Assembly: GCF_963853765.1 (NCBI RefSeq) | Contig: NC_088853.1 | Location: forward strand, 53,258,001 to 53,322,000 | DNA: 64,000 bases | Direction of reading: 5' to 3' | Source: Magallana gigas | Lineage: Eukaryota | In this document: positions 3,050-57,534 of the stretch, piece by piece | Layout: the number at the start of each line of letters is the position of its first letter | Position numbering within the stretch: position 1 is the first letter of the stretch | Position numbers and translations under genes: made by a program | The notes under the pieces: model-generated | Seen by the model: the letters and a program-made list of their open reading frames with translations, nothing else | What the model was told of the DNA's origin: nothing | Databases searched by the model: none

Positions 3050-3318
3050 GGTGTGTAAGTAGTATAAGACGCCTCGATAGGGAGGGGGGGGGTCAACTGA
3101 GTGTACTTTTGGGGTCAAATTCAAAATGGAGGTCAAAATAAGGTAAAACAAGACAGTATAGAGAGAAAACAATTTTATTGAATGAAAACATGCAATTAGA
3201 ACGAAACAATAATGAATAGCTGAATGAAAACAGTTAAAGTTAAAAAACGTATTTACATTGAAGAAATAATCCTTTTCTTTCACGGTTTATCTAGTACATT
3301 CAGCGATCGTTAGAAAAG

Positions 3319-4387: not shown

Positions 4388-4447
4388 GGAGAGCCCAGCA
4401 GTCCAAGGCAGCTAAAGGCTAAGTCCATCTAGCCGAGAAAAACCAAC

Positions 4448-4486
4448 GGCCCTTTTCAGGGCCTCCCATATTTTACGAAAAGATGC
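4448..4486 (+). terminator. Histone-type mRNA 3' stem-loop plus histone downstream element
   Basis: AACCAAC-GGCCCT TTTC AGGGCC (4448-4463), TCCCA, then GAAAAGATGC (4477-4486); 60 nt after the RING stop codon. Confidence 0.85.
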
Positions 4487-4551
4487 TATTTATTATAATG
4501 CAAATAGAAATCAAATATGAAACACCAGTCACACTTCCCTCATACACCAAC

Positions 4552-5181
4552 ATGTATTCTTAAGAGTTACTCTCTCCCTTTCAATTAAAACACGAATTTA
4601 CTATGGTCGTAGCGGGTCCTTCTAAATCGGGGAAAAGAGAATTTGTAAAAAAGGTAATATTAAATAAGCATTGGATCTCCCCTCCCCCGGAGAGAATTGT
4701 TTGGTGTTATCGAGAATGGCAACCGGCCTACGAAAGTTTACGGGGTGAAGTTTAGTATATTCGCGATATACCAGAAAACGAGGAGGAATTAGTAAGTGAT
4801 GTCAGCATTCGTCACCATTTAATTTTTGATGATATGATGGGAGGGAAAGCCATCGTCGATTGGTTTACTCGCAAAGCTCATCACTGTAACACCAGTCTGA
4901 TTTACATTACTCAAAATGTGTTTGATCGAGCCGTCCAACACCGGACGATTAGTTTGAATACTCATTACATGGTTTTGTTTAAAAATCCCAGAGACAAATC
5001 TCAAATCACCGTTTTGAGTCGACAAATAAATATGCCTAATTTAATGTCTGTCTATTTAGATGCTACTCGCATCCCTCACGGATATATGTTAGTGGATTTA
5101 AGTCCACAGACTCCCGACGAATTGAGATTGAGAAGTCAAATGTTTGAGAATTTAGTGGTGTATATGCCACGAAAAATATAA
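4552..5181 (+). pseudogene. Maverick packaging ATPase (FtsK/HerA, A32-like), disrupted
   Basis: MYS*ELLSPFQLKHEFTMVVAGPSKSGK (Walker A), LIFDD (Walker B), HH.N.S.IYITQN; in-frame stops. Confidence 0.9.
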
Positions 5182-5224
5182 ATAAAGGTGATGTACGATT
5201 TACATCATTTTGACTTGGAACACC

Positions 5225-5749
5225 ATGGCAAGACAAAAGAAAATTTTGAGACTCCTGAAACTTTTGCAGGGAGAAAAAGATCCAGTAAAGAGACAAGAGA
5301 CCATCGAGTTAAGTCGTAAGACTTTATTGAAATGGTTTCTCATTGGTGCAAAGAATTTGCTGAACGGGACTATTCCTATCGATAAGCAAACTCAACGTTT
5401 TATCGATAAACATTGAGAAGATGATGATAATAGATTAAAAGCGATCTTGAAACGAGGAGGAGCTGGATTTTTAGGAGGGGCGATCATTCGTCACTTGTTG
5501 AAATGGAATCTGAGTAAAGAGAGAATTGCTCAACCTAAAAAGCGTAAATCAAAGAAAATAACGCAGAAATTAAATATAAAAGATTTTGTAAAAACCCCTC
5601 CCCTAAGGAAAGACTTACCTGATTGGGTTCAGGAGCAAGTAGATTTATATCGACAAGATCAAACAGGTCAAAATCAAGATCTCATTGATCAGATAGATCA
5701 ATATCAAGAGGTAGCCCCTCCTGAGCCAAAGAAAAAGAAAAGGGGTTAG
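5225..5749 (+). pseudogene. Homolog of Maverick ORF 45511-46398, disrupted
   Basis: LKWFLIGAKNLLNGTIPIDKQTQRFIDKH and ILKRGGAGFLGG.IIRHLLKWNL are nearly identical to the copy B protein. Confidence 0.75.
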
Positions 5750-39666: not shown

Positions 39667-39740
39667 AGTAGTATAAGCCGCCTCGCTGGCCGGGTCAACT
39701 GAGTGCACTTTTCAGAGTTGACCCGGCCAGCGATGCGGCT
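39667..39740. repeat. Maverick left terminus with 25-bp-arm hairpin
   Basis: AGTAGT 39667-39672; arms 39676-39700 and 39716-39740 with one mismatch; 15-nt loop. Confidence 0.85.
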
Positions 39741-40009
39741 GAAAATCTAGCTCCCTGAGATTTTAAGCTAATAATGCGGGGTGACCAATCTAAAGTAAGC
39801 ACTTGATCGATGTTTATAGTTGGCGCATCATAGATCCCGATTTATTCAATGATTTTTCCCTCCTTGCATAATGAAATAATAAAAAAGCGAATAAACAGTG
39901 AACATTGGTTTATTGAGAAATGTATGAAAATAAAAACAAGTATGAAATAACACTGAAACAATTCAAATTTACATGAAATAACACTGAAATAGTTCAATTA
40001 CACAAAAAG

Positions 40010-40636
40010 TCAAAATACTGTCACTTTTTCTTTGCGAGAGGTAATTATGGTATTATCTCTTTTCAGATTCGGTTTTCTAGGGCTCGAGGTTTTTTTCTTG
40101 TCACCGGCTGGTGGATTATTTTCTTTTTCAGGGCATTCGGAGGCCCAATGTCCAAGGTTTTGACAAATATAGCAGGGATCTTTGTCTTTGCTTTTTTTAG
40201 GAGGATCCTGCTTTTGTGGACATTCAGGTGCCCAATGCCCTAGTTCTCCGCAGATATAACAGGGATTTGTTTTCCTGGTCGGGATTTTTGATGTGACAGG
40301 TGTCGTATTCCTGGTCTCATTTTTTATTTCACCTACTTGTTCGCTTAGAGCCTGTAGATCATTGGTAATAATTTTCCTGGTTTCACTGATTTCGTTGGCG
40401 AGATTCATCAGATTGTTGATGCTCCCATCTAGGGTGGCCATGAGCAGAGCAAGATCTTCTTTAGTAGCTGGTTTTTCTTGATCCAAGCATGCCAGTTCAA
40501 GATCCGTTGCATCCTGCGATTCCGTGATAGACTGATAATAATTCATAGATTCCCTAAGTGTGGTAGGATGATTATAATTTAAACTGGCAGAGACAGGGTC
40601 TGGACTATCAAAGCGGTCTAGTTGTTTCTGCGCCAT
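40010..40636 (-). CDS. Coiled-coil protein with two CCHC zinc knuckles (Gag nucleocapsid-like)
   Basis: CYICGELGHWAPEC and CYICQNLGHWASEC (C-x2-C-x4-H-x4-C); upstream TATAAA near 40690; AATAAA downstream near 39910. Confidence 0.8.
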   Translation of the reverse strand: MAQKQLDRFDSPDPVSASLNYNHPTTLRESMNYYQSITESQDATDLELACLDQEKPATKEDLALLMATLDGSINNLMNLANEISETRKIITNDLQALSEQVGEIKNETRNTTPVTSKIPTRKTNPCYICGELGHWAPECPQKQDPPKKSKDKDPCYICQNLGHWASECPEKENNPPAGDKKKTSSPRKPNLKRDNTIITSRKEKVTVF

Positions 40637-40685
40637 GTCTGTTTAATGTCAGAGCAAGACTGAGGGAAAAAGCAGCGATGTGCTA

Positions 40686-41030
40686 CTTTATAAATCTTAT
40701 GCAGTCTTGTGCACGAGGCTCTAAAAATAGCAATTTTTTCTTAAAATAGCATTTTTGCTATATACTAAATAGATCCGATGCAATAGATATTTTAAAAATA
40801 GCACATTTCTAAAATTGGCTATCATTTTTTTCCATATTTGCTGCACGCGGCTCTAAAAATAGCTAATTTTTTCTTCTAAAATTAACAATTTTTTATCTTA
40901 TTAATAGATCCTATGCAATATCTAATTAAATAATGAAATAGCATATATATTGTTTAAAAAACAATTGTTTAAAATAGCATATATTCATTTCTAAAAATAA
41001 ATCTGTTTTCATTTCCCTTTATGTATAAAA
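40686..41030. promoter_or_regulatory. Divergent promoter region with two TATA boxes and repeated YTA(A/T)4TAR (MEF2-consensus) motifs
   Basis: TATA boxes near 40690 (minus) and 41024 (plus); CTAAAAATAG at 40721 and 40853, TTAAAAATAG 40792, CTAAAATTAA 40876, CTAAAAATAA 40991. Confidence 0.5.
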
Positions 41031-41066
41031 AGCGTGTTCGATCGAAGCACTTGAAGAGAATTGATC

Positions 41067-44000
41067 ATGACGCTCACATCTATTAAAAAGAGTCTTCTCC
41101 GCGAGCAACGCCGTTTGAGAGAATATCGATTGAAGCAAGAACGTTTAAAACTAAGAAAAGAAAACAACCAAATACTTCAGCATTTACGGCTTTTTAGAAG
41201 AAATCTTCAACGGAAAAAGAAATTGGCCCAAACGAGAGAAAAATCCAAGTACTATCAGATCAGACTGGATCGAGGTCGTCGTTCACGTAAATTTAAGGTC
41301 CAAGAAAATGTATACAATGTGAATTTTAAACCAATACCTCAGAAAGATCATTCTCCCTTCGTTCGGAATGTGATAAGTGAGATGTTAAACGAAGTAAAAG
41401 AACAAATGCGTTGTGACCCCGACGATTATTTGCGATTAAACATACGACACCCCTCCTTAGATTCTGACATTTGGTATGAATTTACTCAATGCAAGCATCT
41501 AAATGCTGAGGGATTACTCGCTAAAATAAAAGGGGTACAACAATCTAAAAGAGATTTCACCATGACGGACGGAGCTGTTCAGTTTGATTTTGTTCATGTC
41601 CAGTATCCTCAAGGAAGTGGTGGAAATAAGAAAAAACACCTATATACAAACAAGGAGAAATTCAAAAAAGGGAAAAAGTCCATTCTGAGTATTCAGAACA
41701 CAGATTCTTTATGTTTACCTCGCGCTATTGTAGTTGCTCGTCTACACAGTAAAAAACCACAGGACCCCGGAGCTTTTAACGCCTGGCAAAAACAATGGAA
41801 GCGGATACAAGAAGCCGATTGTAGAAGTGCAGTTCAAAAGAAACAAGCTCTAGAGCTGATGGAACTTGCCGGGTGTGATTCAACTCTATCTTCTTGTGGA
41901 CCTCTAGAGCAGGGGAATTTACAGGGGGTGTTGTACCCTGAATTCCGCTTGAAGATATTTCAATTCCAAGCAAACAGTTCTACATTAAAATTAGAGCCAA
42001 TATACAAGGGATATGGAAACGGCAAGTGCTTAAACGTGTTGTTAGATCAAGGGCATTATGATACTATACTCTCTATGCCTGGGATTAGTGAACACCAGTA
42101 TTACTGTGATGATTGTGATGTAGGATACAGCCACATTGAAGAACATCGTACCACTTGTCAATATTGCTGCTCTTTTTGTCTGAGCGAGACCCCCTGCCCC
42201 CCGGACGGCAGCTGCATCGAATGTTCCGAATGTCATGGTTTTTTTAAGAGCATGACATGTTACCAGAGTCACTTAAAACCGTACAGTTCTAAGACTAGCA
42301 CCACTGTTTGCAGTATGATGGATCGATGCCAGCACTGTCAGTCCTGGATGGCTAAAAAATTGTTAGCAAATCACAAATGTGGAGGCCAGAAAAAATGCAA
42401 GATCTGTAAGAAAATTGTTGACAAGGACCACCAATGTTACGTTCAGAAGAAACCCTAAAAGAAAAAGAAAAAAGACAAATTACAGCTGTACATTTATTTC
42501 GATTTCGAATGCACACAAGAACATGGTATTCATATCCCGAATTTATGTGTGGCCCATCGTGTCTGTCAACACTGCGATCACTTACCTGTTAACGAACCCT
42601 GTACCAATTGTCAGGCTTTAGGACCCCGTCAACATGTCTTTCGAGGACCAGATACCTTAAAACATTTTGTAGAGTGGCTATTACAACCTGAATGCAAGGT
42701 TAACAACGTATCACAGTTAGTGCACGAAGGGGCTATTGTTATCGCTCACAATTTTAAAGGGTATGACGGGCAATTTATCTTGAATTATATAGTTCACAAA
42801 GCCTGTATCAAACCCTCTGTCATCATGAACGGAAGTAAATATTATCTATGGAAATTTGTGGGGTAAAATTCATAGATTCTTACAACTTTTTGCCTTTTGC
42901 ATTGTCTAAAATGCCTTCTGCTTTCGGCTTCCGGGAACTAAAAAAAGGATATTTTCCTCATTTTTTCAATACCGAACGGAACCAGAATTATGTAGGAGTC
43001 TATCCCTCACCCGCTTTCTACAATCCAGACGACATGAGTACCTCGGGACGCAAAGCTTTCTACGCTTGGTATGAGAAACAGCAGGGAAATGTGTTTAATT
43101 TTCAAGAAGAATTCCTAGCCTATTGTATTTCAGATGTGGATATTTTAAGACCTTGTTGTGCTCAGTTTAGAACAACTATTCAAACCCTTGTCCGTGTGAA
43201 TCCTTTTCAAGAAGCTATAACCTTTGCCAGCACTGCAAATCTCGCTTACCGACGGAGTTTCATGCCTGAACACACCATAGCTATCATTCCTAATCTGGGA
43301 TACCATCCCGCTCGACAGTATTCCATTAAAGCATGTCGTTGGTTGGCCTGGGAGGGTCGGGAAAAGTCTATTCGACATGCCAAAAACGGAGGGGAGGTCA
43401 GACTCGGGAATTTTACAGTAGATGGCTACGATGAGGTCAACAACACTGTGTATGAATTCCACGGTTGTTACTGGCATGGCTGCCCTATATGTTATCCAGA
43501 TAGGGTCACAGACATTCATCCTCATCACTTTGATAGGACTTATGCTACAGTCTACGAGCAGACTCTACGACGGGAAAAAGCATTACGAGATGAAGGTTAC
43601 AATGTTGTCAGTATCTGGGAGCACGAATTTGACCAACAACTGAAAAACCAGGAAGAGTTACAGACATTTTTAGAGCATTTAGACTTTCAAGATCCTTTAA
43701 ATCCCCGAGATAGTTTGTACGGCGGTCGTACCAATGCTACTCGTTTGTTTTGTACAGAGGGAGATATGCGATATGTAGATGTTTGTTCTCTGTATCCTTA
43801 CGTTTTGAAATACAAACCTTTCCCCGTGGGCCACCCCGAAATCCTGACCGAAAATTTCGGAGATGTGAGATCTTACTTCGGACTGATCAAATGTCGCGTC
43901 TTACCCCCACATGGTCTGTATCATCCCGTCTTACCCTATCGCACAGGGGGTAAATTACTGTTTCCTTTATGTCGGACCTGTGCAAAACAACGATTGGCTC

Positions 44001-44807
44001 TAGACCCCGAGTACAGATGTCAACAATCGGATTCAGATCGGTGTCTGACGGGAACATGGGTAACCACAGAACTACAGAAAGCGGTTGAAATTTGATCACA
44101 TTTACGAAATCTGGCATTTCCCTCAAAGCAGTGAGACCTTGTTCAAAGCTTATATCGACACCTTTCTTAAAATCAATCAAGAAGCTTCAGGATTTCCACC
44201 CGACTGTGAAAGTAAAGAACAGAAACAAGCATACATACATGATATTTACCAAAGGGAAGGTATCATGTTAGATTTGCTAGAAGTCGAGAAAAACCCAGTC
44301 AAACGCACTATAGCTAAACTGTTTTTAAACTGTCTGTGGGGGAAATTCGCTCAAAGAATCCAGCTACCGAAATCTCGATACCTGACAGAGGAAGCAGAAT
44401 TTCAACAATTATTACAAGATACCAGCTTAGAGGTCAAAGGGGTAGAACTCTTACAAAATTTGGAGGATCCTAACTCTGACATGATATTGATCAATTATGA
44501 GGAGAAAAAAGAATTCGTGGAAGAATGTCCCTTTGGTAACGTGGTGTTAGCCTGTTTCACCACGGCTCATGCACGATTACATTTGTATGAGACATTGGAA
44601 AAACTGGGAGAACGTGTGTTATATTTCGATACAGACAGTATCATTTATCAACATGAACAGGGGGAGTTTAATCCTACAACTGTCAACAGTTTAGGAGGAT
44701 GGACTGATGAATTAGACGGGGGTCACATTATCAAGTTTATGTCAGGGGGCCCAAAGAATTATGCTTTTGAAATAGACTGTGGAAACATTGTTTCAACTGA
44801 AACATGA
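41067..44807 (+). pseudogene. polB: Protein-primed family B DNA polymerase (pPolB) with Cys-rich N-terminal region and endonuclease-like insert; disrupted and 3'-truncated
   Basis: YFDFEC, AHNFKGYD, FIDS.NF, VDGYD...YEFHGCYWHGC, YGGRT, YVDVCSLYP, KLFLNCLWGKF, YFDTDS, GGPKNY; stop at 42456, frameshifts ~42845 and ~44090. Confidence 0.95.
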
Positions 44808-45472
44808 ATTTACCATGGTGGTAGCAGGCCCTTCTAAGTCGGGAAAAACTGAATTTGTTAAAAAGCTAGTAGAAAATACTCATTGGATCTCCCCATCCCC
44901 CGAAAAAATCATCTGGTGTTATCGAGAATGGCAACCAGCCTACGAATCTCTTACAACATCGCGTAAAGTTTATACGCAATATTCCCGAAGATGATGAGAA
45001 ATTGGTAGCAGATATCGAGACTCGACACCTCTTAATTTTTGATGATATGATGGGAGGCAGGGCTATCGAATCTATTGTGGATTGGTTTACAAGAAAAGCC
45101 CATCATCGGAATACTAGTGTTATTTACATTACTCAAAATGTATTTGATCGAGCAGCTCAACATCGCACTATTAGTTTAAACGCTCATTATTTAGTCTTGT
45201 TTAAAAATCCTAGAGACAAGTCTCAAATTGTCGTGTTGAGTCGACAATTAGATATGCCACATTTAATCTCGGCCTATCATGATGCCACTCGAATACCCCA
45301 CGGGTACCTGATTGTGGATTTAAGCATGCCACATTTAATCTCGGCCTATCATGATGCCACTCGAATACCCCACGGGTACCTGATTGTGGATTTAAGCCCT
45401 CAGACCCCCGATGAATTACGCCTGAGAAGTCACATGTTTCAGACCCTTACAGTGTATATGCCTAGAGTATAA
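44790..45472 (+). pseudogene. Packaging ATPase (FtsK/HerA, A32-like), 5'-truncated and frameshifted
   Basis: GPSKSGKT, LLIFDD, HHRNTSVIYITQN; frameshift ~44960; 72-bp in-frame duplication at 45254-45397. Confidence 0.92.
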
Positions 45473-45510
45473 ATATTAGAGTTTACATATACCCAGAATC
45501 ATTTGAAATC

Positions 45511-46398
45511 ATGACTGGAAAGAAGTTACTACACACATTACGGCGCTTACAACATGAACGAGATCCTGAGAAACGCGCGGAAATTATTGAGCTGGGGCGA
45601 AAAGCCTTAATGAAATGGTTTTTAACCGGGGCTAAAAATTTATTGAAAGGAGTCATTCCTATCAATAAACAGACACAGCGTTTCATTGATAAACATCGTG
45701 AGGATTTAAGGGTCATTGCCAATAAAAAGGTCAATGATGATAATAGAATAAGAGCTATTCTGAAACGAGGTGGGGCTGGATTTATTGGAGGAGTCATCAT
45801 TCGTCATTTATTGAAATGGAATTTGGCCAAAGCCCGAACAGCTAAACCAAGAAAAAAAACCCAAGGACGACGACTCAAGAGTGTGATAGGAAAAGTACTC
45901 AATTCCAAGGCTCCTAAACTGAGACAGTTACCCCAGTGGATGGTAGACATAGGGAAGGTTTCCTCACGCAAAAGGAAAGCTCCTAGAAAAAAGAGATCTC
46001 CCAGGAAAACCTCTCGGAAAGGACAAAAACTGATTGTAAAACTTCCTCCAAGACAGAAAAAGCCTCCTGAACAAGTTCCTTTGACCCAGCCTTCCCCCAA
46101 TACCACATTAGCCATGGCTCAAATGAAAATGAATAGAGCGATGGCAGGGCCAATAGGGAGTCAAAGAACGCCTGATATTCAATCCAGTGTGTTTCCCAGA
46201 ATTAAAGTTCTTGTTCATCACATCCCGAGATATTCCTCATTGTTTAGTAAAGTGACAGGTTTCAGTCCGTTACAAGACCCAGATAAGAAGAACAAGAAAG
46301 GAAAATATGAATGTCGCTACTGTCCCATGGAATTTAAACTGAAAAAATCCAGAGATCAACACGAAAAAACTACTCATCTTGGCTATGCCCCTCCTTAA
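45511..46398 (+). CDS. Maverick protein with conserved NLLKG-type N-terminal domain, basic linker and C-terminal C2H2 zinc finger
   Basis: AKNLLKGVIP; Lys/Arg-rich middle; CRYC-x12-H-x4-H at the C-terminus. Confidence 0.8.
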   Translation: MTGKKLLHTLRRLQHERDPEKRAEIIELGRKALMKWFLTGAKNLLKGVIPINKQTQRFIDKHREDLRVIANKKVNDDNRIRAILKRGGAGFIGGVIIRHLLKWNLAKARTAKPRKKTQGRRLKSVIGKVLNSKAPKLRQLPQWMVDIGKVSSRKRKAPRKKRSPRKTSRKGQKLIVKLPPRQKKPPEQVPLTQPSPNTTLAMAQMKMNRAMAGPIGSQRTPDIQSSVFPRIKVLVHHIPRYSSLFSKVTGFSPLQDPDKKNKKGKYECRYCPMEFKLKKSRDQHEKTTHLGYAPP

Positions 46399-46449
46399 AA
46401 AAGTATAAAAACCCTCACAAGCTAGATATAGCTATCATTGTGAACAAAG

Positions 46450-46812
46450 ATGGGTTCAAACCAGAAGAAAAAGAAAAAGAACAAAGCCTGCAGTTGTGAA
46501 TCTCGACTAAAACCTCATTTACCGATATTACAATTATTATCGATGCCTAAATATTCATCAAAATTAAAAAATGACGTTTTAAAGCATTGTTCTAATGACT
46601 GTATTTTAAAGATTTGTGAGATTGCTTACAACCTCTTAAAAGGTAATGTACCACTAAAGTCGTCTCAGAAGATAAAACTCGCGCCTCAGAAACACATCTT
46701 GAGGCGCCTCGTTCAACCACAGTCAGTACAGAAACGCAGACGAACTTTATTATTGAATCAAAAAGGAGGTGTTTTCCCAGTCATTCCCCTAATCCTCAGT
46801 TTACTGTCTTGA
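46450..46812 (+). CDS. Conserved small Maverick protein ending in QKGG plus hydrophobic tail
   Basis: ICEIAYNLLKGNVPL...LRRL...LNQKGGVFPVIPLILSLLS. Confidence 0.8.
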   Translation: MGSNQKKKKKNKACSCESRLKPHLPILQLLSMPKYSSKLKNDVLKHCSNDCILKICEIAYNLLKGNVPLKSSQKIKLAPQKHILRRLVQPQSVQKRRRTLLLNQKGGVFPVIPLILSLLS

Positions 46813-46816
46813 AATC

Positions 46817-47635
46817 ATGAGTCGTAAAATGGTGTTAGTTCCGGAAGCAATGTTACTAGAATTGAAAGGTAAATTGCCTAAATCTCCCGAATTTCAAGCT
46901 ACCATTGGCTTAGGACATCAGTTAGACCATATTCAAGGGAGAGAAGATTTAAACCCAGAAGAAAAAGTAGCCCTCTATGGTCATCAATTACATCGTTATC
47001 GGAATTATTTACAACAAGCCCGTGATCAAGGAAAGGAGAGGACATTTACAACACCATTACCTAGCGCAGAAAAAGATAAAGAGGCAGTCGAAGATGATGG
47101 GGCTGCTGCTGATGTTGCTGCTGACCCAAGTTCCTCAGAACTAGAAGAACAGGTGATGAAAAGTGTAAGCAAACAGATGCAAAAGAGAGCAGGACTTCTA
47201 TTAGATCACCTCAAAAAAACTAAAGTCTTAAAATGGAACTCCGATGGAGAAATAAGTTATCGAGGAAAACGCATACCCCAGTCTAATATCGTTGATCTGG
47301 TAACTAATACAATGAGAACTAAATCCCGTAGAGCATTTCGCTCTCCGATCGGCATTGACGAATTTGCTCAAGCCTTGAAAGAAACCAATGTGCCGACGGA
47401 TTACCTACAGAATCCAAACATTATAAAAGCCATGCAAAAGCCTGGAAAAATCAGTACCCCTAAACCCCTTCAAGATGAAAAAGACGATAATGACGACGAT
47501 ACTGGGTTTCAGGAAGCTTTTACGTTTACTACACCACAAGCTTCTCCCTTCTTTATGACGCCAAAAGTATCAAAGACAGTAAAAAAGAGAGGAAACGCAC
47601 AAATCTTAAATTGGGATAAATTGGGCAAGAAATGA
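46817..47635 (+). CDS. Conserved Maverick hypothetical protein
   Basis: MSRKMVLVP start; LKWNSDGEISYRGKRIPQSNIVDLV block typical of Maverick core ORFs; uninterrupted 272 aa. Confidence 0.75.
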   Translation: MSRKMVLVPEAMLLELKGKLPKSPEFQATIGLGHQLDHIQGREDLNPEEKVALYGHQLHRYRNYLQQARDQGKERTFTTPLPSAEKDKEAVEDDGAAADVAADPSSSELEEQVMKSVSKQMQKRAGLLLDHLKKTKVLKWNSDGEISYRGKRIPQSNIVDLVTNTMRTKSRRAFRSPIGIDEFAQALKETNVPTDYLQNPNIIKAMQKPGKISTPKPLQDEKDDNDDDTGFQEAFTFTTPQASPFFMTPKVSKTVKKRGNAQILNWDKLGKK

Positions 47636-48735
47636 AGAAAAAGAAAAAAAAATTAGAAGACATATTACGAGAGATTTATTATGATCCTAAGACTGGATAT
47701 GGAGGCGTACAAGCCCTATACCGTCAAGTACGTGCTAAGGGGTATCCTATATCACTTACGGATATTAGAAAATGGTTAAAAGAACAAGAAACATATACTC
47801 TGCATAAACCCATTCGTCGGAAATTTAAGCGACAACAAACTCGAGTGACCGGTATCGATGAGCAATGGCAATTAGACTTAGCAGATGTATCACAGTTAAA
47901 GAAAGAGAACGAGGGTAATACCTTTTTACTGTGTGCTATCGATGTACTCTCAAAATATGCTTGGGTGGTGCCATTAAAGCAAAAAACTGGGAAGGAAATG
48001 ATACGAGGATTACAACAGATCAGTAAACAAGACGGGCGACAACCCGTTCGCATTCAGTCGGACAAGGGGAGGGAATTCACAAACAAGGAGTTTTTACGCG
48101 CTTTTAAATCCATTCATTTCTTTACCACTCGCAATGCAGAAACAAAAGCAAGTATCGTGGAGCGCTTTCAACGCACACTTAAAGCTCGCATGTGGAGATA
48201 TTTCACCCGTCATAAAACTCGCCGATATCTTGACATCTTACCGGATCTTGTGTTCGCCTACAATCACTCGTATCATCGCAGTATAAAAAGAGCTCCAGCT
48301 GATGTGAATGCCTCTAATGTATTACAAGTGTGGAAAAATCTGTATAAAAAAAATTCATCTACAACTTTCTATACTCCTAAATTTCACAAAGGTGACAGAG
48401 TGCGCATCAGTAAAGCTAAACGCACTTTTGAAAAGGGATATCTGCCTAACTGGACCAGAGAGTTATTTACGATTTCTCGTCGAGTCCAGGAAGCTGTTCC
48501 ATACAGATATAAAATACAAGACTCTCATGGAGAAGAATTAGAAGGAACATTTTACGAATCAGAAATGCAAAAAGTCATAAAAAAAGACGATGTATATGAA
48601 GTGGAGGAAATATTAGACTATAAAAAGCGGCGAGTAGGAAAAAAAATCATAACTGAAATCAAAGTGCGTTGGAAAGGATATCCTCCTAGCTTTGACTCAT
48701 GGATTCCTCAAACAGATCTCCTACTTCCCAAATGA
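47632..48735 (+). CDS. int: Retroviral-like (rve) integrase with C-terminal chromodomain, intact
   Basis: WQLDLAD, IDVLSKYAW, QSDKGREF, VERFQRTLK, GYLPNWT; YEVEEIL...VRWKGYPPSFDSWIP. Confidence 0.96.
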   Translation: MKKKKKKLEDILREIYYDPKTGYGGVQALYRQVRAKGYPISLTDIRKWLKEQETYTLHKPIRRKFKRQQTRVTGIDEQWQLDLADVSQLKKENEGNTFLLCAIDVLSKYAWVVPLKQKTGKEMIRGLQQISKQDGRQPVRIQSDKGREFTNKEFLRAFKSIHFFTTRNAETKASIVERFQRTLKARMWRYFTRHKTRRYLDILPDLVFAYNHSYHRSIKRAPADVNASNVLQVWKNLYKKNSSTTFYTPKFHKGDRVRISKAKRTFEKGYLPNWTRELFTISRRVQEAVPYRYKIQDSHGEELEGTFYESEMQKVIKKDDVYEVEEILDYKKRRVGKKIITEIKVRWKGYPPSFDSWIPQTDLLLPK

Positions 48736-48947
48736 GTGATCAATGGAAAATGTTTGGTGAAAAGATTCCTAGAGCTGAAATTGTGTATTTTGCTCAACTT
48801 CTGATCTGCCTGATATTAATAATCGCTTGTATCGTCATGTTAGTCTTACATGACTCTAATCGAGAATATTGGATGATTTGTCTTAGTTCCACCGTGGGTT
48901 ACATTATGCCCAGTCCTACTCTCCAACTCAAACCAGAATCTGCATGA
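48732..48947 (+). CDS. Small two-transmembrane-helix protein
   Basis: ATG overlaps the integrase TGA (ATGA); YFAQLLICLILIIACIVMLVL and YWMICLSSTVGYIMPSP. Confidence 0.7.
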   Translation: MSDQWKMFGEKIPRAEIVYFAQLLICLILIIACIVMLVLHDSNREYWMICLSSTVGYIMPSPTLQLKPESA

Positions 48948-49070
48948 AAAAAAGTCACGTGATCATTTTTCCATCTTAAATATGAAGTGCAGCACTAGTC
49001 ACTGACTTATTATTAGCGTGAGCGCTGAGATCAAGCTGCATGGTTTTTTGTGATCTGAGACACACCTAAG

Positions 49071-49391
49071 ATGAATGAAATACAGTACCGGTGGAAAATT
49101 ATAGATCCTCAGGGAGTCCTTAAGGGAGAATGGATGTCTACTAAACAGAATTGTTTACATGATTTCATGCAGAATCCTCACGTTCCTCAGGAAGAGAGAA
49201 AAATCTACTTATACAAAAGAATTCCGATTCCCGCTGGAAAAAGATATTTCCGGATGATTGGCAAAAGTAAATATGAACAATTTCGATGGAAAGTCAAATG
49301 TCAATGGAATGTGTTTCACCCTTCAAAAAACCACGAACCTGCATGGACTCTTATCGAGGGAGACTGGACAGATGATTTCAAAAAGTTCTAA
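49071..49391 (+). CDS. Hypothetical Maverick protein
   Basis: 106-aa ORF with ATG start inside the element; no recognised motif. Confidence 0.45.
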   Translation: MNEIQYRWKIIDPQGVLKGEWMSTKQNCLHDFMQNPHVPQEERKIYLYKRIPIPAGKRYFRMIGKSKYEQFRWKVKCQWNVFHPSKNHEPAWTLIEGDWTDDFKKF

Positions 49392-49816
49392 AGACTTTCA
49401 TGAGACGATTACCAAAGGTTATGATTTTGTGGACTCCTGTGTGCCTTACATGCGGAGACCATTTCCGATTAAAGTAAAGCGGGGGAGATCCAAGAGTGTG
49501 TGACTGGCTAAAAACAAAAACAAAACAGCATAATTAGTGATTTTTTGTCATTCAAAAAATATTAAAGAATGTGTTCTTTGTTTTTTCTGTTTTGAAATAA
49601 ATATATGTGTATAAAAAAGTGTGGTTATTAATGTCAAATTTTGATATGTAGTTATGGTTCAGAATATAATTTTTTTTTAAAAATGACTAAATATTTCTAG
49701 GTTTAAAAAAAAAAAAAAAAAAAATAGATGAATATTGGAGGGTATATTATTGTCAAACTAAATAAAGGTATAAATAGAGGGGTTTAGAAAATAATTGTTT
49801 CATTGTAATTATCAAT

Positions 49817-50836
49817 ATGGCTGGAAGTGATGGGTTCTATTTGACCTTACCCAGTGATGGGTCGATGGAGGCTTTTCCACAAAATACGGTAGCTCAGTTT
49901 AAAACGTTGTTACCTCAGACAGTCGATTTAACAGATGGAGAATGGCAAATGGGTTTGACTGAAATGATGTACGGGAGTTCTGTTAAAAACATTTTATCAA
50001 ACGAATCCTATTTTGATATTTTAGTCACACAAAACTTCAAGGCATTTGTGGATGATCCCGACATTTTTAAAATCAATCGTTTTCAGATGAAAGAAATGAA
50101 TACTACACGTCTGTCTAAACTTGACCCACTAGTAGACTGGAAATATTCTTATTTGGCACGCGATGAGAGAGCTGCAAGACGAAAAGTTAAAATTGAGGAA
50201 ATTAAAAATAAAAGAGTGAAAATTTTTCGAATTCAATTTCGTTCTGGTCCTTATGTACACCCCAAGGCGTTAATCTCTGAAATCAATGAGGGTCTTAGTT
50301 TAAGCTTGAAAAGAATCTGGGAAACCATGGGTCATCCAGAACAGAAGAGTAACATGAAACTAGTGTACTACGAAAATTTTGATCGGATTGAATATCAGTA
50401 CAACGGAGAGCTGCTCCGAACTAAAAACCCCTTTAGTGTTCGCTTCCCAGTATCTCTAGCTTTAAAATTGGGGTTTGGAACAAAGGCCTTCAACACAAAT
50501 GATGAGAGCATGACAAAGTGGATCAATGTGACCTATTTAGCTCCAAACACGATCGATTTGTACGAGAATTTGAAACAGATGTACGTGTATTGCGATGTGG
50601 TAGAACCTCAGATGGTGGGGTCTAATGCTTTGAAATTACTAAGAGTCGTTCCCGTAACTCACAGTACTCACGATCACATGCAAGCTAAATGGGAGCCTGT
50701 GAGGGCCGAATATTTGAAATTGAGTAAGAAGCATTTCGATACCATCGAAATACAGATCAGAACTCCGTTAGGCATCGTGATGCCCTTTATAAGTGGAAAA
50801 AGCATCTTAAAACTTCATTTTAAAAAACTTTATTGA
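49817..50836 (+). CDS. Minor capsid protein (penton, single jelly-roll), intact
   Basis: FYLTLPSD...FPQNT..F...LP....L..GEW.MGL; YVYCDVVEPQMVG...LLRVVP; FDTIEI.I...LG..MPF..GK....LHF. Confidence 0.9.
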   Translation: MAGSDGFYLTLPSDGSMEAFPQNTVAQFKTLLPQTVDLTDGEWQMGLTEMMYGSSVKNILSNESYFDILVTQNFKAFVDDPDIFKINRFQMKEMNTTRLSKLDPLVDWKYSYLARDERAARRKVKIEEIKNKRVKIFRIQFRSGPYVHPKALISEINEGLSLSLKRIWETMGHPEQKSNMKLVYYENFDRIEYQYNGELLRTKNPFSVRFPVSLALKLGFGTKAFNTNDESMTKWINVTYLAPNTIDLYENLKQMYVYCDVVEPQMVGSNALKLLRVVPVTHSTHDHMQAKWEPVRAEYLKLSKKHFDTIEIQIRTPLGIVMPFISGKSILKLHFKKLY

Positions 50837-50993
50837 AACAGATGGATCCCTATAGCTTGACTTTTTCCATCTTGGTTGCTGTTGTTACCTGTATAATGTG
50901 TTGCATAGAATGTTTTTACACCTTCTTTCATCACTACTAAACCTCTCTATATAAGGACTCGAAACGCACCATTCTTAACATTTAAAAAAAAAC

Positions 50994-51119
50994 ATGGTGT
51001 ACCCCCAATCACCGCGGCGAAGAAGACGCCAGAGAGGACGTGGATTCTTTTTACCCATCGTTGCTTCACTCATTGCGAGTGCCGTAGGCTCTCAGCTTGG
51101 GAAAGGGAGAGGAAGATGA
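50994..51119 (+). CDS. 41-aa Arg-rich micro-ORF with amphipathic/hydrophobic helix (not in the supplied track)
   Basis: MVYPQSPRRRRRQRGRGFFLPIVASLIASAVGSQLGKGRGR; TATATAA ~45 nt upstream. Confidence 0.65.
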   Translation: MVYPQSPRRRRRQRGRGFFLPIVASLIASAVGSQLGKGRGR

Positions 51120-51203
51120 GGAGGAGGAGGAGGGGGAAAAAAGTCGAGACTTAGAAGAAAAAAGTATAAAAAAAGGAATCATTAAACAACTTCCTCAGTC
51201 GTC

Positions 51204-52064
51204 ATGGATTATCATCGCGGATTATTACGTCAACGAGGACACGGATTTTTGGGACCACTTTTAAAACTAGGACTGCCCCTAGTCGGGAGTGCCGTGACTC
51301 CCCTTCTCGGCGATTTGGCAGGGGGGTTGGTAAAAAAAATTAAACATCGTCAGAAAGGAAGTGGTTTTGTTACAAATGCTTGAAAAACGGCTGCTAAACA
51401 TGGTAATTTGGTCACCGGGAATGCCGCCATAGACAGCCTTAATAATAAAGGAACATTTATGCAAGGGCTTAGGCGGCACGGTACCCAAACACTTGGAAAC
51501 GTAGGGGTCCATGCCGTGGAACAACAACTGAGACGAAATCTACCCATCCTCCGTGCTCCTATCGTCGGATCTGTACTTAATAAGACACTGATGCCTGACG
51601 TCAGGAGAAAAGTGGGAACTGCTATCGATAATACCGTCAATAAGATCTTAGGACAAAGAGGTAAAGGTTTCGCCACTAAACTAATCAGAACGGGAGCTAA
51701 ACACTTGCCTCACTTAGTGCCGTGTTGCCTTGCAACACGGCACTAAGGCCCTCATGAAAAAGGGAGTTCAACAAGCCCCTCGCTTTTTACGTAAAGGTGC
51801 ACATGACTTAGTGAAAACGGGAACGCAACAGGCTTTACAGAGCGCTGCCCAGGCAGGCTTCGATGTCTTAAACCAAAAAGGATCTTTAAAACAAGTCGTA
51901 AAGTCTCGCGGTTTACAGGCCGTTTATAGGACCGGAAGGACTATGAAAAAGAAAAACTTACCCCCAAGCAAGGGATTGTTCTGGCCCGGGGAGGCCCCCA
52001 CAAAAGAAAAAGAACTAAGACACCCGCAGCTAAAAAATCTCGAACGGCAGATATCTTTGATTGA
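51204..52064 (+). pseudogene. Basic virion core/cement-type precursor with repeated Q-x-G-x-G-F motifs, disrupted
   Basis: QRGHGF, QKGSGF, QRGKGF; basic C-terminus ending KKSRTADIFD; one stop and two frameshifts. Confidence 0.7.
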
Positions 52065-52146
52065 ACCTATAAAAAGGCGGTCCCCAACCTTACCCTACAC
52101 ATTTTTACCCATTGTATCGTTAGTCACACATCAACCCCCCTTCTGG

Positions 52147-53554
52147 ATGATGCACCGAGAATCATGAGTGTGTGGGATGGACAGTTTAGAACTGTTTCAA
52201 GTCCCTGCCACGAACGTAGCTTTAGAAGAATCAAAATGGGTAGAATATTACCCTGTTTCCAGTACCCTGCAGTCTGATACGGCCCCTATTGAATTTGATA
52301 TTAAAGGACAGGGAGATGAATATCTCGATCTCTCACAAACCTATCTACAACTCTGTTGTAAATTCACCAAATCCGATGGTACTAATTTAACGGGAGCCTC
52401 GACTCCCGTCAATAATATCTTACATTCTCTGTTCACGGAAATCGACGTGAGTCTCAATGGAAAAGTCATTTCCCCCGGAACGGATACCTATCCGTACAAA
52501 GCCTACCTGGAGAAATTGCTCTCATACAAACCGAGAACTCTAACCAAGCAAATGAAGTCTGTGGGAGAAAGATACCGCTGAACACATGGAAGATCTTAAT
52601 TATGCTGCCGCTGAACTTACGACTAACACATTTGATGTTAGGGCAAAAGAGGATGATGAGGATGCCAAAGAAATTGAGATAGATGCAGCGGACCTGGTCT
52701 TGAGTTACCCTGCAGGATCCGGAAATGTAGGGTTAAGTAAACGTCACAAGGCCGTAGACGACAGTAAAAAAATTATTTTAATGGATCGACTCTATATTGA
52801 TTTGTTTCAACAAGATAAATTTCTACCTAACGGAGTAGACCTTCGCTTGAGATTCAATCGCGCGAAATCTGATTTCTACATGATGACGGCCGCCTTAAGC
52901 AGTGGAAAAGTAAAAATTGAGAATATGTTGTTGTTGGTGAGAAAAATCAAGCCTACTCCAACCGAGTTAAATGCCATCAATCAGCGCCTGAATGCTGAAA
53001 CAGCAAAATATCCCCTAAGACGGGTCGAAGTAAAAACATTCACTATCCCCACGGGCACTCAATCTAAAATTAGCGATCATCTCTTTCAAGGACAGATGCC
53101 GAAACGAGTGGTGTTGGGGTTTGTAGCCAATGCTGCCTTTAACGGAGATTCAACCAAAAACCCCTTTAATTTCAAAAACGCTAAAGTGAAAAAGTTAGAA
53201 ATCAGCATCAACGGCGAGAGTATGAGCACCAGACCATTTGAGCCCGATTTTGAGAACAATCTGTACCTGAGATCTTACTTGAGTCTGTATCAAGGGCTCG
53301 GAAAATTAGGGGAAGATTGGGCTCCGGACATTACCTTGGAAGAGTATAAAAAGGGATACATACTTTGGTGTGTTGATTTCACTAAAGACCAGGAAGCGCA
53401 GCTCGATAAGTTTCATCTGATCGAAACGGGGAACTTGAGAATCGAAGTTCAATTTGCAGAAAACACAGCCGAAACGCTTAACTGTTTAGTGTATGCCGAA
53501 TTTGACAATTTGTTGGAAATCAACAAACAGCGAGAAGTGAACATAGATTACTAA
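52147..53554 (+). pseudogene. Major capsid protein (double jelly-roll), disrupted
   Basis: [74 protein letters not shown]; stop at 52165 and frameshift ~52560. Confidence 0.93.
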
Positions 53555-53576
53555 AACGACAAAAAAAGACAAACTT

Positions 53577-54089
53577 ATGGATACAGGGCAGTTACGAGCC
53601 GTGTTATCACAATCCTTAGGCAGTTCTTTTGCGGGCGTCTATCCCAGAGATTTAATTCCCCATCAAAAAAGACCGTACGAGAAAGCGATCGTCGTGAATA
53701 CAGATCCTCACGATCGACCAGGAATGCATTGGGTGTGCCTTTATTTGAATACTCCCATCATTGAATACTTTGATTCATACGGATTACCCCCCTTACACCA
53801 TGAAATTAGAGATTTTATAGCTCGACATGCTCAACAATGGGACTACAATCGGAATCGTTATCAGGATTACTCTACGGACGTCTGTGGACAATATTGTGTG
53901 TATTATTTACAACAACGCCATCGAGGGAACATGAATGCTTTAGACTGGCTTTTTCCATTCCCAAAGACGTCGAGGTTATCCCCCCTTCAACGGGATCATT
54001 ATGTAGCTGAGTGGTTTAGAGAGACTTACCGTAAAGCTAAAAGAAATCAAGGACAAACTTGTCAATGTTTCTGGCAAAATATGTTTTAA
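53577..54089 (+). CDS. Adenain-like cysteine maturation protease, intact
   Basis: VNTD....GMHWV, YFDSYG, YQD....VCGQYC give the H-D-Q-C catalytic set. Confidence 0.95.
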   Translation: MDTGQLRAVLSQSLGSSFAGVYPRDLIPHQKRPYEKAIVVNTDPHDRPGMHWVCLYLNTPIIEYFDSYGLPPLHHEIRDFIARHAQQWDYNRNRYQDYSTDVCGQYCVYYLQQRHRGNMNALDWLFPFPKTSRLSPLQRDHYVAEWFRETYRKAKRNQGQTCQCFWQNMF

Positions 54090-54406
54090 TATTGTTGTTG
54101 ATGTTTCGTTGTGTTCATTCTAATTAAAAAAAAAATATATGTTTTTTCTGTAGCATTTAAGAAATATAATATATCTGATCTATGATTGGATATCTGATTT
54201 ATTATCATAAAATTGCATTGGATTTATTTTTAAAATGATATCACACTACTGTTTAAGGAGTTACTATTATTAAATCAAAAACGGTTTGATTACAAGGTAC
54301 GATGTCATAATGATATCATAATCTAATATTAGAAATTTAATATCTTATATAAATGAGCGCATCGCCAGTTTTATTTCATCCATCTTGTTCTGACATTTCA
54401 AACAAC

Positions 54407-55016
54407 ATGGAAATTATGGAAGTAGCCAACGGAGGGGAAATGTGTTCCATCTCTACGAACTTCTACGCCACCGCTTTTTGAGCCTTACATTAAAACCGAG
54501 GAAGAAGAAAAAACCATCCTAAGAAGCCTGAGACAGGAATATTTGGGTCTTGTAGAAAGTCTTATGGCAGCGGAGGATATAGTCTTCGAGAAATTGAACG
54601 CCAGTAAACCACCTAGCCGTATGGCGCTCTTTTTTTCAACACAAATAAATGCAATGGAACTAAAGGAAATGAAGACCGTGCGCTCTCTTCAGAAAGGGAT
54701 AGAAAAGCACCGCCAGTGGACCACCGATGATGTAGTGCGCAATGGAGAAGAGTACATTAAAGAAGTCTGCTTGATGAATGAGTGCGTTCAAAGAGATATA
54801 ATTGCTTCATTCGAACATAATGAGTGGAAAATCTATCTACCTCAGGAAAAAAATTCCGAGTCCTTTCATTTTCAAACCATACTACGTGAGTGCCTTAAGG
54901 ATGTAGCTACATGGTTGAGAGACTACCTGTTTATGAGCATGACAACTCTGAGGAATCTCAGCAGGAAAATTTATTTGGAGGCGCTTGTAATCCCTAAAGA
55001 AGAGCCTACCAATTAA
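54407..55016 (+). pseudogene. Hypothetical Maverick accessory ORF with 5' frameshift
   Basis: TATATAAA near 54347; ATG 54407 in one frame, long frame open 54426-55016 in another. Confidence 0.45.
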
Positions 55017-55850: not shown

Positions 55851-56162
55851 AGAAACATCAAGAGTCTCAGGGTTCGCTGAAAAAAAAAATAAGATAAAGT
55901 TGAAATAATTCTCTCTAAAAAAAAAAACAAAACATTAAACAATTGAAGAAATGTTGGTATCTTCCTATGACATATGTACAGACTATTTGTCATATCTTAA
56001 CAAGTAATCTATAAATATATCATACAAAATAACACCAAGAGTCTCAGGGTTCGCTGAAAAAAAAAAGTAAGATCAATGAAACAATGATTAAACAATGAAA
56101 TCGAATGAAAAACAAAAAACATTTAGACAAAACAAACAATTCGTTTCTCTGCTATAATAGAG

Positions 56163-56223
56163 GCATCTTTTCTAAAAATCTGGTGGCCCTTAAAAGGGCC
56201 GTGGGGGTTGGCTTTAAAAAGCC
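56163..56223 (-). terminator. Histone-type 3' end: imperfect stem-loop, canonical stem-loop and downstream element
   Basis: Minus strand reads GGCTT TTTA AAGCC (56210-56223), GGCCCT TTTA AGGGCC (56185-56200), ACCAG, then GAAAAGATGC (56163-56172). Confidence 0.9.
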
Positions 56224-56231
56224 CTACTGAT

Positions 56232-56624
56232 CTACTGATGTAGAATCCTCGGCAGCTGGCTAGTCGACATTCTAGCCGTTTGCCGCTGGCGGCTAGGTCG
56301 TGGCACGGGGAGGATGGCTGGCGATGGGGGTGGTGTCATATCCCTGAGAGGAACGGGGATAATTGCCGGCGGCCTGTAAGGGTGCTCCCTTCTCCTCCTC
56401 CTCCTCCTGAGGGGACTGGCCTGGGCAGGCGGTGACTGGGGGGCTGGAGGGTCTGCCGCTGCTTGGGGCTGCTGCTCTGCCGATGGCGGGGGCTGCTGCT
56501 GCTGGTGTGCCGCCCGCATTCCTCGGACGTCTAGTTGGGAGATCCGCCCGATCTCGATCTCCGCTATGGTCCGGTAGTGCACCTCCCCGTTACAGTCATT
56601 CCTTATGTGTTTAAACAAATCCAT
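56232..56624 (-). CDS. 130-aa Pro/Arg-rich protein with C-terminal histone H3 tail mimic carrying Met at the K9 position
   Basis: Intact ORF; SRQRQTARMSTSQLPR (56247-56294) aligns to H3 ARTKQTARKSTGGKAPR. Confidence 0.85.
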   Translation of the reverse strand: MDLFKHIRNDCNGEVHYRTIAEIEIGRISQLDVRGMRAAHQQQQPPPSAEQQPQAAADPPAPQSPPAQASPLRRRRRRREHPYRPPAIIPVPLRDMTPPPSPAILPVPRPSRQRQTARMSTSQLPRILHQ

Positions 56625-56717
56625 TGTGAATTAAAACATCCTTTAATCTGCAGTTACATCTTGACTCTACCCTTGTTTATTACCAGTAGATCCTACCCTG
56701 ATGAGTGGCCTACCCTG

Positions 56718-56863
56718 ATTGGACAAATCAAAATACAGAATGTTCTAGAACGCATACTAATTAGTTTAAGGTGGTAAAATATAGCTGGCTTTTCTAGAAA
56801 GTTCTAGAAATCGATGACAGTAATGTACGGATTCTTATGAAGTCATAGTTTTTTATGACGTCA
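56718..56863 (-). promoter_or_regulatory. Stress-type promoter: CCAAT box, two perfect heat-shock elements and a CRE/ATF site
   Basis: ATTGG 56718-56722; GAA-TG-TTC-TA-GAA 56738-56750; TTC-TA-GAA-AG-TTC-TA-GAA 56792-56809; TGACGTCA 56856-56863. Confidence 0.75.
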
Positions 56864-57090
56864 CTTTGAACTCCCTGATGTTTAATAACTCAGTTTTTTA
56901 ACTACACACTAAAATACATGATATTATACCTGACTTTAATAAAAAAAAAAATCGGGAAAAGCAGAACATTTTGTTAATAGCAAATACATTTTTAATTTGA
57001 ATTAGAATTTGCACACTATAAACAACATAATATTTTGTTATGTTTAATAATTTTAATCGATGAATACAGTGAAATACACACATACGAAAT

Positions 57091-57339
57091 TCAAGTTCTC
57101 TGTTGTTTGATATAGGTCCATAACAATTTTCTCAATTTACACATAGTTCTTACACGGTCTACGGCCACGAACATCCACGGACTCCTCCGGTCTTCGGGAG
57201 GTAAAACATATATTTGATCCTGTGCAGTATCAAAAGTCACTCGTTTTCCTTTAGATTTTTGAGACTTAATAACTTCATCCAACCGAATTGAATGGTTGTA
57301 ATACGAATCGCTTCTATCTGTTGATGAAGTCGATGACAT
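57091..57339 (-). CDS. ICP34.5/DP71L/GADD34-like PP1-recruiting protein
   Basis: KRVTF (RVxF) followed by EDRRSPWMFVAVDRVR, matching the R.GPW...A.DR.RF motif of this family; first ATG at 57339. Confidence 0.75.
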   Translation of the reverse strand: MSSTSSTDRSDSYYNHSIRLDEVIKSQKSKGKRVTFDTAQDQIYVLPPEDRRSPWMFVAVDRVRTMCKLRKLLWTYIKQQRT

Positions 57340-57534
57340 TTTATCCACTTTTTACTTCTGTCGGGGGATAAGATAAACTCCAGGATATCTTGATGATATT
57401 CTGTAGAAGAAACGCCAGTCAGTTTAGGTAAAACTGCTTTTTAACTGCATCGGCGATGTAAGCAATTATCTAAGCAAAGTGAGCAATTAACTTGGGTTTT
57501 TTTTTTTTTTGCAAAGTAACTACTCTATTAACAA

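Follow-up and report, generated by a model that had tools for sequence, protein, structure and literature searches.

Histone mRNAs are cut after a 3′ stem-loop by a machinery that involves SLBP and U7, which yields a non-polyadenylated message favoured in dividing cells, and this pathway is held to serve histone messages. The Maverick gene block described here ends in a comparable signal, alike in the stem-loop, in the ACC that follows the stem and in the spacing of the histone downstream element (HDE) core. It differs from the 3′ end of a replication-dependent histone mRNA in that, as predicted from sequence, it stands on a non-histone viral gene and often comes as tandem hairpins; in some of the groups where this gene encodes a RING protein, there are also an AATAAA behind the stem-loop and an intron.

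Mavericks/Polintons (adintoviruses) are described as carrying accessory genes that include Oncoid, Bcl2 and IAP homologues (Starrett et al., PMC8502044). The element studied here resembles the adintoviruses of that paper in its context of pPolB, integrase, ATPase, capsid and protease genes and in small accessory genes with paired CxxC motifs, whereas the text examined of the same paper contains neither a phosphatase adaptor nor a histone-type 3′ end. Neither histone nor phosphatase is mentioned in the part consulted of a coral polintovirus study (PMC11131425), and neither methionine nor Polinton in that of a virome-wide paper on histone mimics (PMC11738798). A 2026 survey, in the portion examined, reports large DNA viruses to lack SLBP and other 3′-processing proteins and leaves Polintons unmentioned (10.64898/2026.10.14.759114). 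The initial annotation of the locus had called its combination of parts undescribed, and in the literature searched neither GADD34 nor a histone stem-loop nor a K-to-M mimic is linked to Mavericks or Polintons.

Histones with K-to-M substitutions are described as interfering with SET enzymes (PMC9768651), and an H3K9M peptide as inhibiting Clr4 (PMC8167812). EZHIP is reported to inhibit at K27 via a short C-terminal motif (10.64898/2025.12.12.693809). The candidate H3-like protein of the present locus shares with EZHIP/KLP, as presented there, a low-complexity, nuclear character and a short C-terminal motif with Met at the target lysine; it differs in that the context is K9 instead of K27 and in being encoded by a mobile element instead of the host. 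SARS-CoV-2 ORF8, according to the text examined, likewise has a short viral motif that matches the H3 ARKS site (10.1101/2021.11.10.468057). However, ORF8 retains the lysine, whereas the TARMST motif found here has Met and would therefore act as a dead-end decoy instead of serving as a substrate.

Like GADD34/CReP, HSV ICP34.5 and ASFV DP71L, the Maverick adaptor has an RVxF motif followed by R..W...A.DR.R; the eIF2alpha-binding motif is stated to require RF (PMC5346070). In contrast to these proteins, the Maverick adaptor is overprinted on another frame, ORF X, and the clade of the element studied here has RT in place of RF.

A gene block in a decayed Maverick

We analysed a stretch of 64 kb (the window) and searched the genome that contains it (564 Mb, 29 contigs). 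A decayed Maverick spans 39.7-57.4 kb of the window. Pfam matches to DNA_pol_B_2 (E 3.8e-35 and 5.1e-8) and to rve (E 8.5e-10, in an integrase with a chromodomain) give the pair of protein-primed PolB and retroviral-type integrase by which Mavericks/Polintons are defined. The protease match is under the Pfam cut-off (Peptidase_C5, E 0.03), the ATPase remnant of Walker A type was identified by eye, and the major capsid protein (MCP) gave no match in a Pfam search, its label resting in part on 70% matches in other elements.

The core genes are broken, as the initial annotation had noted: PolB into three ORFs, the ATPase gene by a frameshift and a 72-bp duplication, and MCP over two ORFs. The block of interest was likewise located correctly, with adaptor ORF, CRE, two heat-shock elements (HSEs), CCAAT box, H3-like ORF, stem-loop and HDE all lying on the minus strand (Table 1). 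The assertion that all of these parts look intact did not hold. The H3-like gene of the window lacks about 269 bp, the native start among them, and ORF X, which lies upstream of and overlaps the adaptor frame, is cut at about 57446. Intact parts beside broken core genes, a contrast that suggested an active or domesticated switch, are thus not what the window shows.

Table 1. Features of the Maverick block and of the remainder of the element in the window
Feature	Position	Strand	Remarks
Rest of decayed Maverick	39693..55016	+	zinc-knuckle gene, PolB pieces, broken ATPase, integrase, split MCP, protease
Histone downstream element (HDE)	56159..56178	-	purine-rich; core and offset as in host histone genes
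Histone 3′ stem-loop	56185..56200	-	Rfam RF00032, 34.8 bits; 6-bp stem
Second, degenerate histone-like hairpin	56210..56223	-	upstream of the main one
Pro/Gln-rich protein ORF, end QTARMSTSQLPRILHQ	56232..56624	-	130 aa in window copy
TARMST	56262..56279	-	equals host H3 T6-T11 except Met at K9 position
Arginine run and HPY	56376..56408	-	RRRR.HPY invariant in 11/11 rows of alignment A1
Deletion junction	56589..56591		about 269 bp absent: leader, native start, first ~27 codons
CCAAT box	56718..56722	-	kept in L006 and L005
Perfect 3-unit HSE	56738..56750		retained by L004 but lost from L005; in L002 part of it is deleted
Perfect 4-unit HSE	56792..56809		kept in L002, L004, L005
CRE palindrome TGACGTCA	56856..56863		imperfect in L004, L005
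GADD34/DP71L-like PP1 adaptor ORF	57091..57339	-	82 aa; RVxF present, RT instead of RF
ORF X 3′ remnant	57237..57446	-	homology to L008-L010 begins at 57446

The block had also been placed at the end of a Maverick. It does hold the last recognisable Maverick genes before a multi-copy repeat that begins at about 57532, but the right terminus of the element was not found, another repeat occupying this end, and no long inverted repeat joins 39.7 kb to 57.4 kb of the window. In copy L006, the stem-loop is joined directly to position 40186 of the window, which makes block and left end parts of a single element. Near the left limit, a 25-nt inverted repeat (39676-39740) was observed, which also occurs near the zinc-knuckle gene of L055 and L059. 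Long terminal repeats holding the zinc-knuckle gene were considered and rejected, the shared stretch at 40725-40933 being an AT-rich repeat with several copies in L004.

Much of the element, together with its right flank, is present as a 97-99% identical duplicate at G000:C1:63.687-63.712 Mb, which has extra insertions and a further 123-bp promoter deletion. A second Maverick remnant lies at 3300-5500 (plus strand) of the window and consists of a Pro-rich RING gene, a stem-loop at about 4488 with an HDE (under the Rfam cut-off), and then the ATPase.

The histone-type 3′ signal and its distribution

The sole Rfam match in the window is to Histone3 (56159-56205), its 34.8 bits exceeding the gathering cut-off of 34 bits. 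When folded, none of 200 shuffles was as stable as the window stem-loop. The stem is followed by ACC, and the HDE core lies 12 nt past it, as in host H2A and in a PL-I/H1-like gene (12 each; 13 in H2B), and also matches the host H3 HDE. The stem-loop and HDE of the initial annotation are thus well borne out. In the window's clade, AATAAA is absent within 400 nt past the stem. Tandem histone-like hairpins, as in the window, are also found in L026, L061 and L069. Histone clusters and the PL-I/H1-like gene are present in the host genome and suggest a bivalve host, and a genome search for the host U7 snRNA gave none above the cut-off. The closest single host match to the 3′ signal is the end of the PL-I/H1-like gene (91% over 54 nt), an intronless gene for a basic protein at locus L013 (C9:9.147 Mb).

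A stem-loop pattern modelled on the window sequence had 23 exact matches in the genome and none for the reversed control. Eighteen of the 23 are inside Mavericks, a count that is not a share of all stem-loops because the pattern misses the clustered core histone genes. Fifteen follow a GADD34-like ORF of the same strand at a distance of 0.8-3.2 kb; the others are found before a Maverick ATPase (3), in a divergent RING group (3) and in host histone-family genes (2). Rfam Histone3 was above the cut-off in 13 of the 20 loci tested; nine of these 13, all from RING groups, reached 38.9-43.2 bits, higher than the two host genes tested.

In these other groups, the gene before the stem-loop encodes a proline-rich protein with a C-terminal RING finger, the ATPase gene begins 84-115 nt past the stem, and a CRE sits in most cases between the GADD34-like ORF and the RING gene. 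The H3-like gene and the RING-like gene of sister L009 have homologous leaders (score 67, shuffle maximum 45). An undeleted form of the H3-like protein (P0009) and the RING protein align with each other in proline-rich sequence only (E 0.022), and replacement of one gene by the other therefore rests on position and leader.

Co-occurrence of the parts in related elements, which the initial annotation had made a condition of its proposal, was thus obtained in part. Stem-loop with HDE, CRE and GADD34-like ORF recur in other Maverick groups of the genome, but perfect HSEs were present in 0/20 loci (L041-L060, all 20 with a perfect CRE), and a RING protein stands in place of the tail. The H3K9M-like tail, and with it the full set of parts, is confined to the window's clade. 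As judged by these distributions, the parts of the block have different histories.

Searches of IMG/VR gave 0 matches for the RING gene and 0 for the stem-loop and HDE pattern; four metagenome loci that match the RING gene are generic RING proteins without a stem-loop. Several further arrangements were noticed in the genome. The RING gene of one group (L069 and L059) has GT-AG introns, and three to four stem-loop-like hairpins stand in tandem at its end. RING genes of a divergent group (L026, L072, L073) have stem-loop and HDE with no GADD34-like ORF seen upstream. Five dispersed copies of a repeated element (L062-L066) contain an ORF, presumably of SGNH/GDSL-hydrolase type, followed by a histone stem-loop (36.2 bits in Rfam for L062) and an HDE, so that a histone-type 3′ signal is found in another family of mobile elements too.

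Predicted promoter, TARMST protein and candidate phosphatase adaptor

The two HSEs are the only perfect ones in the 64 kb, and a 4-unit HSE is expected 0.025 times per 64 kb, as estimated from 40 simulated sequences. Both have at least three contiguous inverted nGAAn units, as is characteristic of HSF1-type sites. Elsewhere, HSEs were found only in the other copies of the window's clade (L002, L004, L005) and in the sister (L008, L009), where they precede ORF X; in the window they lie behind, not before, the GADD34-like adaptor. In L006, several upstream ATGs are located between the CCAAT box and the native start, from which the HSEs are about 350-430 nt away. In the sister copies L008 and L009, three HSEs and a TATA box (875-1050) stand directly before ORF X and the GADD34-like ORF.

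The stretch deleted from the H3-like gene of the window is present in L004 and L006 (about 269 bp) and in L005 (about 200+ bp), and contigs from 3/4 sequencing runs diverge from the window sequence at the deletion junction. The window ORF begins at 56624 with what was originally an upstream ATG, now joined in frame to codon ~28 of the native ORF. Undeleted forms encode 144-161 aa (P0002, P0003, P0005, P0007, P0009, P0010), with 17 members from other samples for P0002 and 5 for P0003. None of the four copies in this genome is full-length and all are damaged: besides the window copy, L002 is frameshifted and has lost more of its promoter, L006 is interrupted by a stop and by frameshifts and its stem-loop is cut, and L005 carries an insertion within the motif.

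Comparison of these copies shows that the H3-like ORF was a real gene under purifying selection, measured between old copies and not at the window locus. Between the window and L006, dS is 0.30 and dN 0.08 (dN/dS 0.26, p 5.5e-5), and between the window and L005 dN/dS is 0.35 (p 8e-4). The last 20 codons differ from those of L006 by 5 synonymous and 2 non-synonymous changes (dN/dS 0.08). In the N-terminal part, L006 and L005 differ at 12 synonymous and 10 non-synonymous codons of 54. The promoter and adaptor of the window and L006 are only ~4% different, yet the dS of the H3-like ORF is 0.30; this mosaic suggests an exchange of the H3-like gene between variants.

The host H3 tail reads QTARKST and the tail of the window ORF TARMST, that is, the H3 site with Met at the target lysine. 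Among 27 homologues, 16 keep the C-terminal frame, with TARMST in 9, TAGMST in 6 and TACMST in 1. The seven that lack the Arg also lack the native N-terminus and hence may be dead genes. A subtype at 39-46% identity retains TARMST while the preceding residues vary and the upstream flank differs; its frameshifted members read through stem-loop/HDE-like sequence. The arginine run with HPY we take to be a PY-type nuclear localisation signal.

The initial annotation had called this protein an H3-tail mimic. The motif is present and its ORF was selected (dN/dS 0.26-0.35), but the likeness to H3 as a plain alignment is modest: its score was reached by 100/5000 shuffles (2%) for P0003 and by 1048-1517/5000 for three other variants, up to 30% in P0010. 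The context of the motif is closer to K9 (5-7/15 identities) than to K27 (3-5). The case for mimicry is made by the exact K-to-M change at K9, together with conservation and the invariant basic HPY signal. A recent origin of the tail in host H3 was rejected, since third codon positions agree in 1/7, and no similarity beyond shuffles to host H3 DNA was observed.

A search of 1.84 billion representatives with the H3-like ORF returned 12 matches, all close, and homologues were confined to a narrow set of Logan proteins, with no distant ones in IMG/VR, JGI metagenomes, Pfam or the ESM Atlas. Nothing was found in the PDB with the last 30 residues. The structure model of the protein is unusable (pLDDT 50).

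The upstream ORF had been proposed to be a viral GADD34. It has an RVxF motif (KRVTF) and GADD34/DP71L-like character, but RT (DRVRTMCKL) where the eIF2alpha-binding motif has RF. The Pfam match was PP1c_bdg at E 0.012, under the cut-off, and a comparison with CReP/PPP1R15B reached only E 0.061. The adaptor core compared with L008 gave a dN/dS of 0.41 (p 0.03) and the whole ORF 0.63 (p 0.14); the comparison between the window and L005 was left out because it crosses a frameshift. The genome contains 31 adaptor loci (34 rows). The window's clade and its sister have RT, whereas other groups have RF: five of six ORFs from these groups match the RF-type motif pattern, and in the sixth (L042) RF is present but A is replaced by S. 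In these other groups the adaptor is a frame of 174-242 aa overlapping ORF X, and one relative, L045, matches ASFV DP71L at E 2.3e-7. Judged by its motifs, the PP1 adaptor of the window's clade is the least convincing in the genome.

ORF X is full in L041-L060. It is predicted to be all-helical, and nine of the 50 VIA rows are Bcl-2-family chains (Z 4.8-5.8, with none exceeding 8), while a Foldseek search gave no match at E<=0.001; ORF X is possibly Bcl-2-like. In L041-L052, L055, L059 and L060, the GADD34-like ORF is overprinted in another frame on an ORF X of 138-170 aa. In L053, L054, L056 and L058, a GADD34-like ORF with intact motif lies beside a CARD+PC4 gene and a PC4 gene, with clustered CREs.

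Interpretation and alternatives

What stands firm, as far as predicted signals go, is that Maverick groups conserve a histone-type 3′ signal on a gene that is not a histone gene and have an overprinted GADD34-like adaptor ahead of it. We favour, with a probability of about 0.55, the reading that the window block is a decayed allele of a host-control block of a bivalve Maverick clade, in which a nuclear-protein gene has histone-type 3′ processing. Such a block would comprise two units, ORF X with the overlapping GADD34/DP71L-like adaptor, followed by a gene that is headed by a CRE, encodes a proline-rich nuclear protein and terminates in stem-loop and HDE. In active ancestors, host SLBP and U7 snRNP very probably cut the pre-mRNA to a non-polyadenylated, proliferation-linked message, in most groups with its 3′ end before the ATPase; some groups may polyadenylate as well. 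The slot of the second unit would hold a nuclear regulator, usually a RING protein, and in the window's clade a different protein with a TARMST tail.

HSF1 probably induced the H3-like gene of this clade, since perfect HSEs sit in its promoter. Its adaptor is likely to recruit PP1, judging from the RVxF motif; that it is aimed at eIF2alpha seems doubtful here and highly likely in the RING groups. Tentatively, the TARMST tail might act as a K9-methyltransferase decoy that lowers K9 methylation, as H3K9M does, and would then lie in the peptide groove of SUV39H, G9a or SETDB1 with the Met in the lysine channel. It is rather unlikely, on present sequence evidence, that the clade combines all of this in a Maverick-encoded natural H3K9M oncohistone mimic that was made from a heat-inducible, SLBP/U7-processed mRNA and, during stress, lifted the element's own heterochromatin, with Mavericks routing an early regulatory gene via the histone mRNA pathway. 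That the window copy still acts is improbable.

Several observations count against the favoured reading. No exact stem-loop was found within 4 kb of 16 of the 31 GADD34-like loci, nor behind the adaptor of sister L009, and two features of RING groups are unlike canonical histone genes, namely an AATAAA 36-56 nt further on at 6 of 9 stem-loops and, in one group, a RING gene interrupted by a GT-AG intron. The AATAAA and the intron, as well as the close match to the PL-I/H1-like gene end, would fit a captured host fragment that is neutral or serves only as terminator or insulator, the messages ending at poly(A) sites. We consider this improbable, given that the exact HDE spacing is kept across groups only about 70% alike in their core genes, that the stem-loop is tandemly duplicated in several groups and that the window's clade has no nearby AATAAA. 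A weightier alternative, only somewhat short of even odds, concerns the tail. It could be another short motif that is H3-like by chance, either a site of phosphorylation (RxS) or a short helix at the C-terminus (LPRIL) that a co-regulator or degron reader recognises, in which case the histone-type 3′ end and the HSEs would be real and unrelated to chromatin mimicry. Indeed, conservation covers TARMSTS.LPRIL and so extends past the H3-like part, a C-terminal helix is predicted (at low confidence), Gly12-Gly13 of H3 are unmatched and the shuffle significance is weak. Nevertheless, five of six residues match with the single change exactly K to M at K9, TARMST stays while its N-terminal flank varies, and the fixed motif has a chance of about 3e-6 per ORF of the same composition, before allowing for its post-hoc choice.

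The initial annotation proposed an intact switch of four parts: upon heat, an inhibitor of K9 methyltransferases would be made and would de-silence the provirus, and the PP1 adaptor would meanwhile sustain translation. This proposal draws on the HSEs in 3/3 other clade copies and their acquisition before ORF X in the sister, on the selected ORF with its K9M-like tail and on the undeleted forms in other samples. Against this, the window copy is deleted and no genomic copy is full-length, the adaptor lacks RF, three of the parts are general to groups that have neither HSE nor tail, and the window HSEs do not precede the adaptor. It is quite unlikely that all the parts form one such heat-triggered induction switch. 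Domestication of the H3-like gene by the host as a stress-regulated chromatin factor would agree with a frame that is open across the deletion and with the retention of tail, nuclear localisation signal, HSEs and 3′ signal. However, deleted, undeleted, frameshifted and stopped copies all occur and the measured selection is that between old copies, which makes domestication very improbable.

If the favoured reading is true, a stem-loop and HDE that several Maverick groups share on a gene other than a histone gene would turn U7/SLBP processing into a route borrowed by mobile elements and tie a Maverick early gene to dividing cells. Libraries of poly(A) RNA would then miss the message, and this may partly explain why it is hard to observe Mavericks being active in animals. 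If real, a K9M decoy of natural origin would amount to a new way of countering silencing and would parallel EZHIP, and the HSEs of one clade would offer a concrete link from heat stress to element activity in an intertidal-type host. Even if the reading of the tail fails, the histone-type 3′ signal and the overprinted adaptor would still stand. In the host genome, a SUV39H exon was found that ends inside SET, and L087-L090 (C4:54.5-55.2 Mb) contain six tandem Pre-SET-bearing frames with stops.
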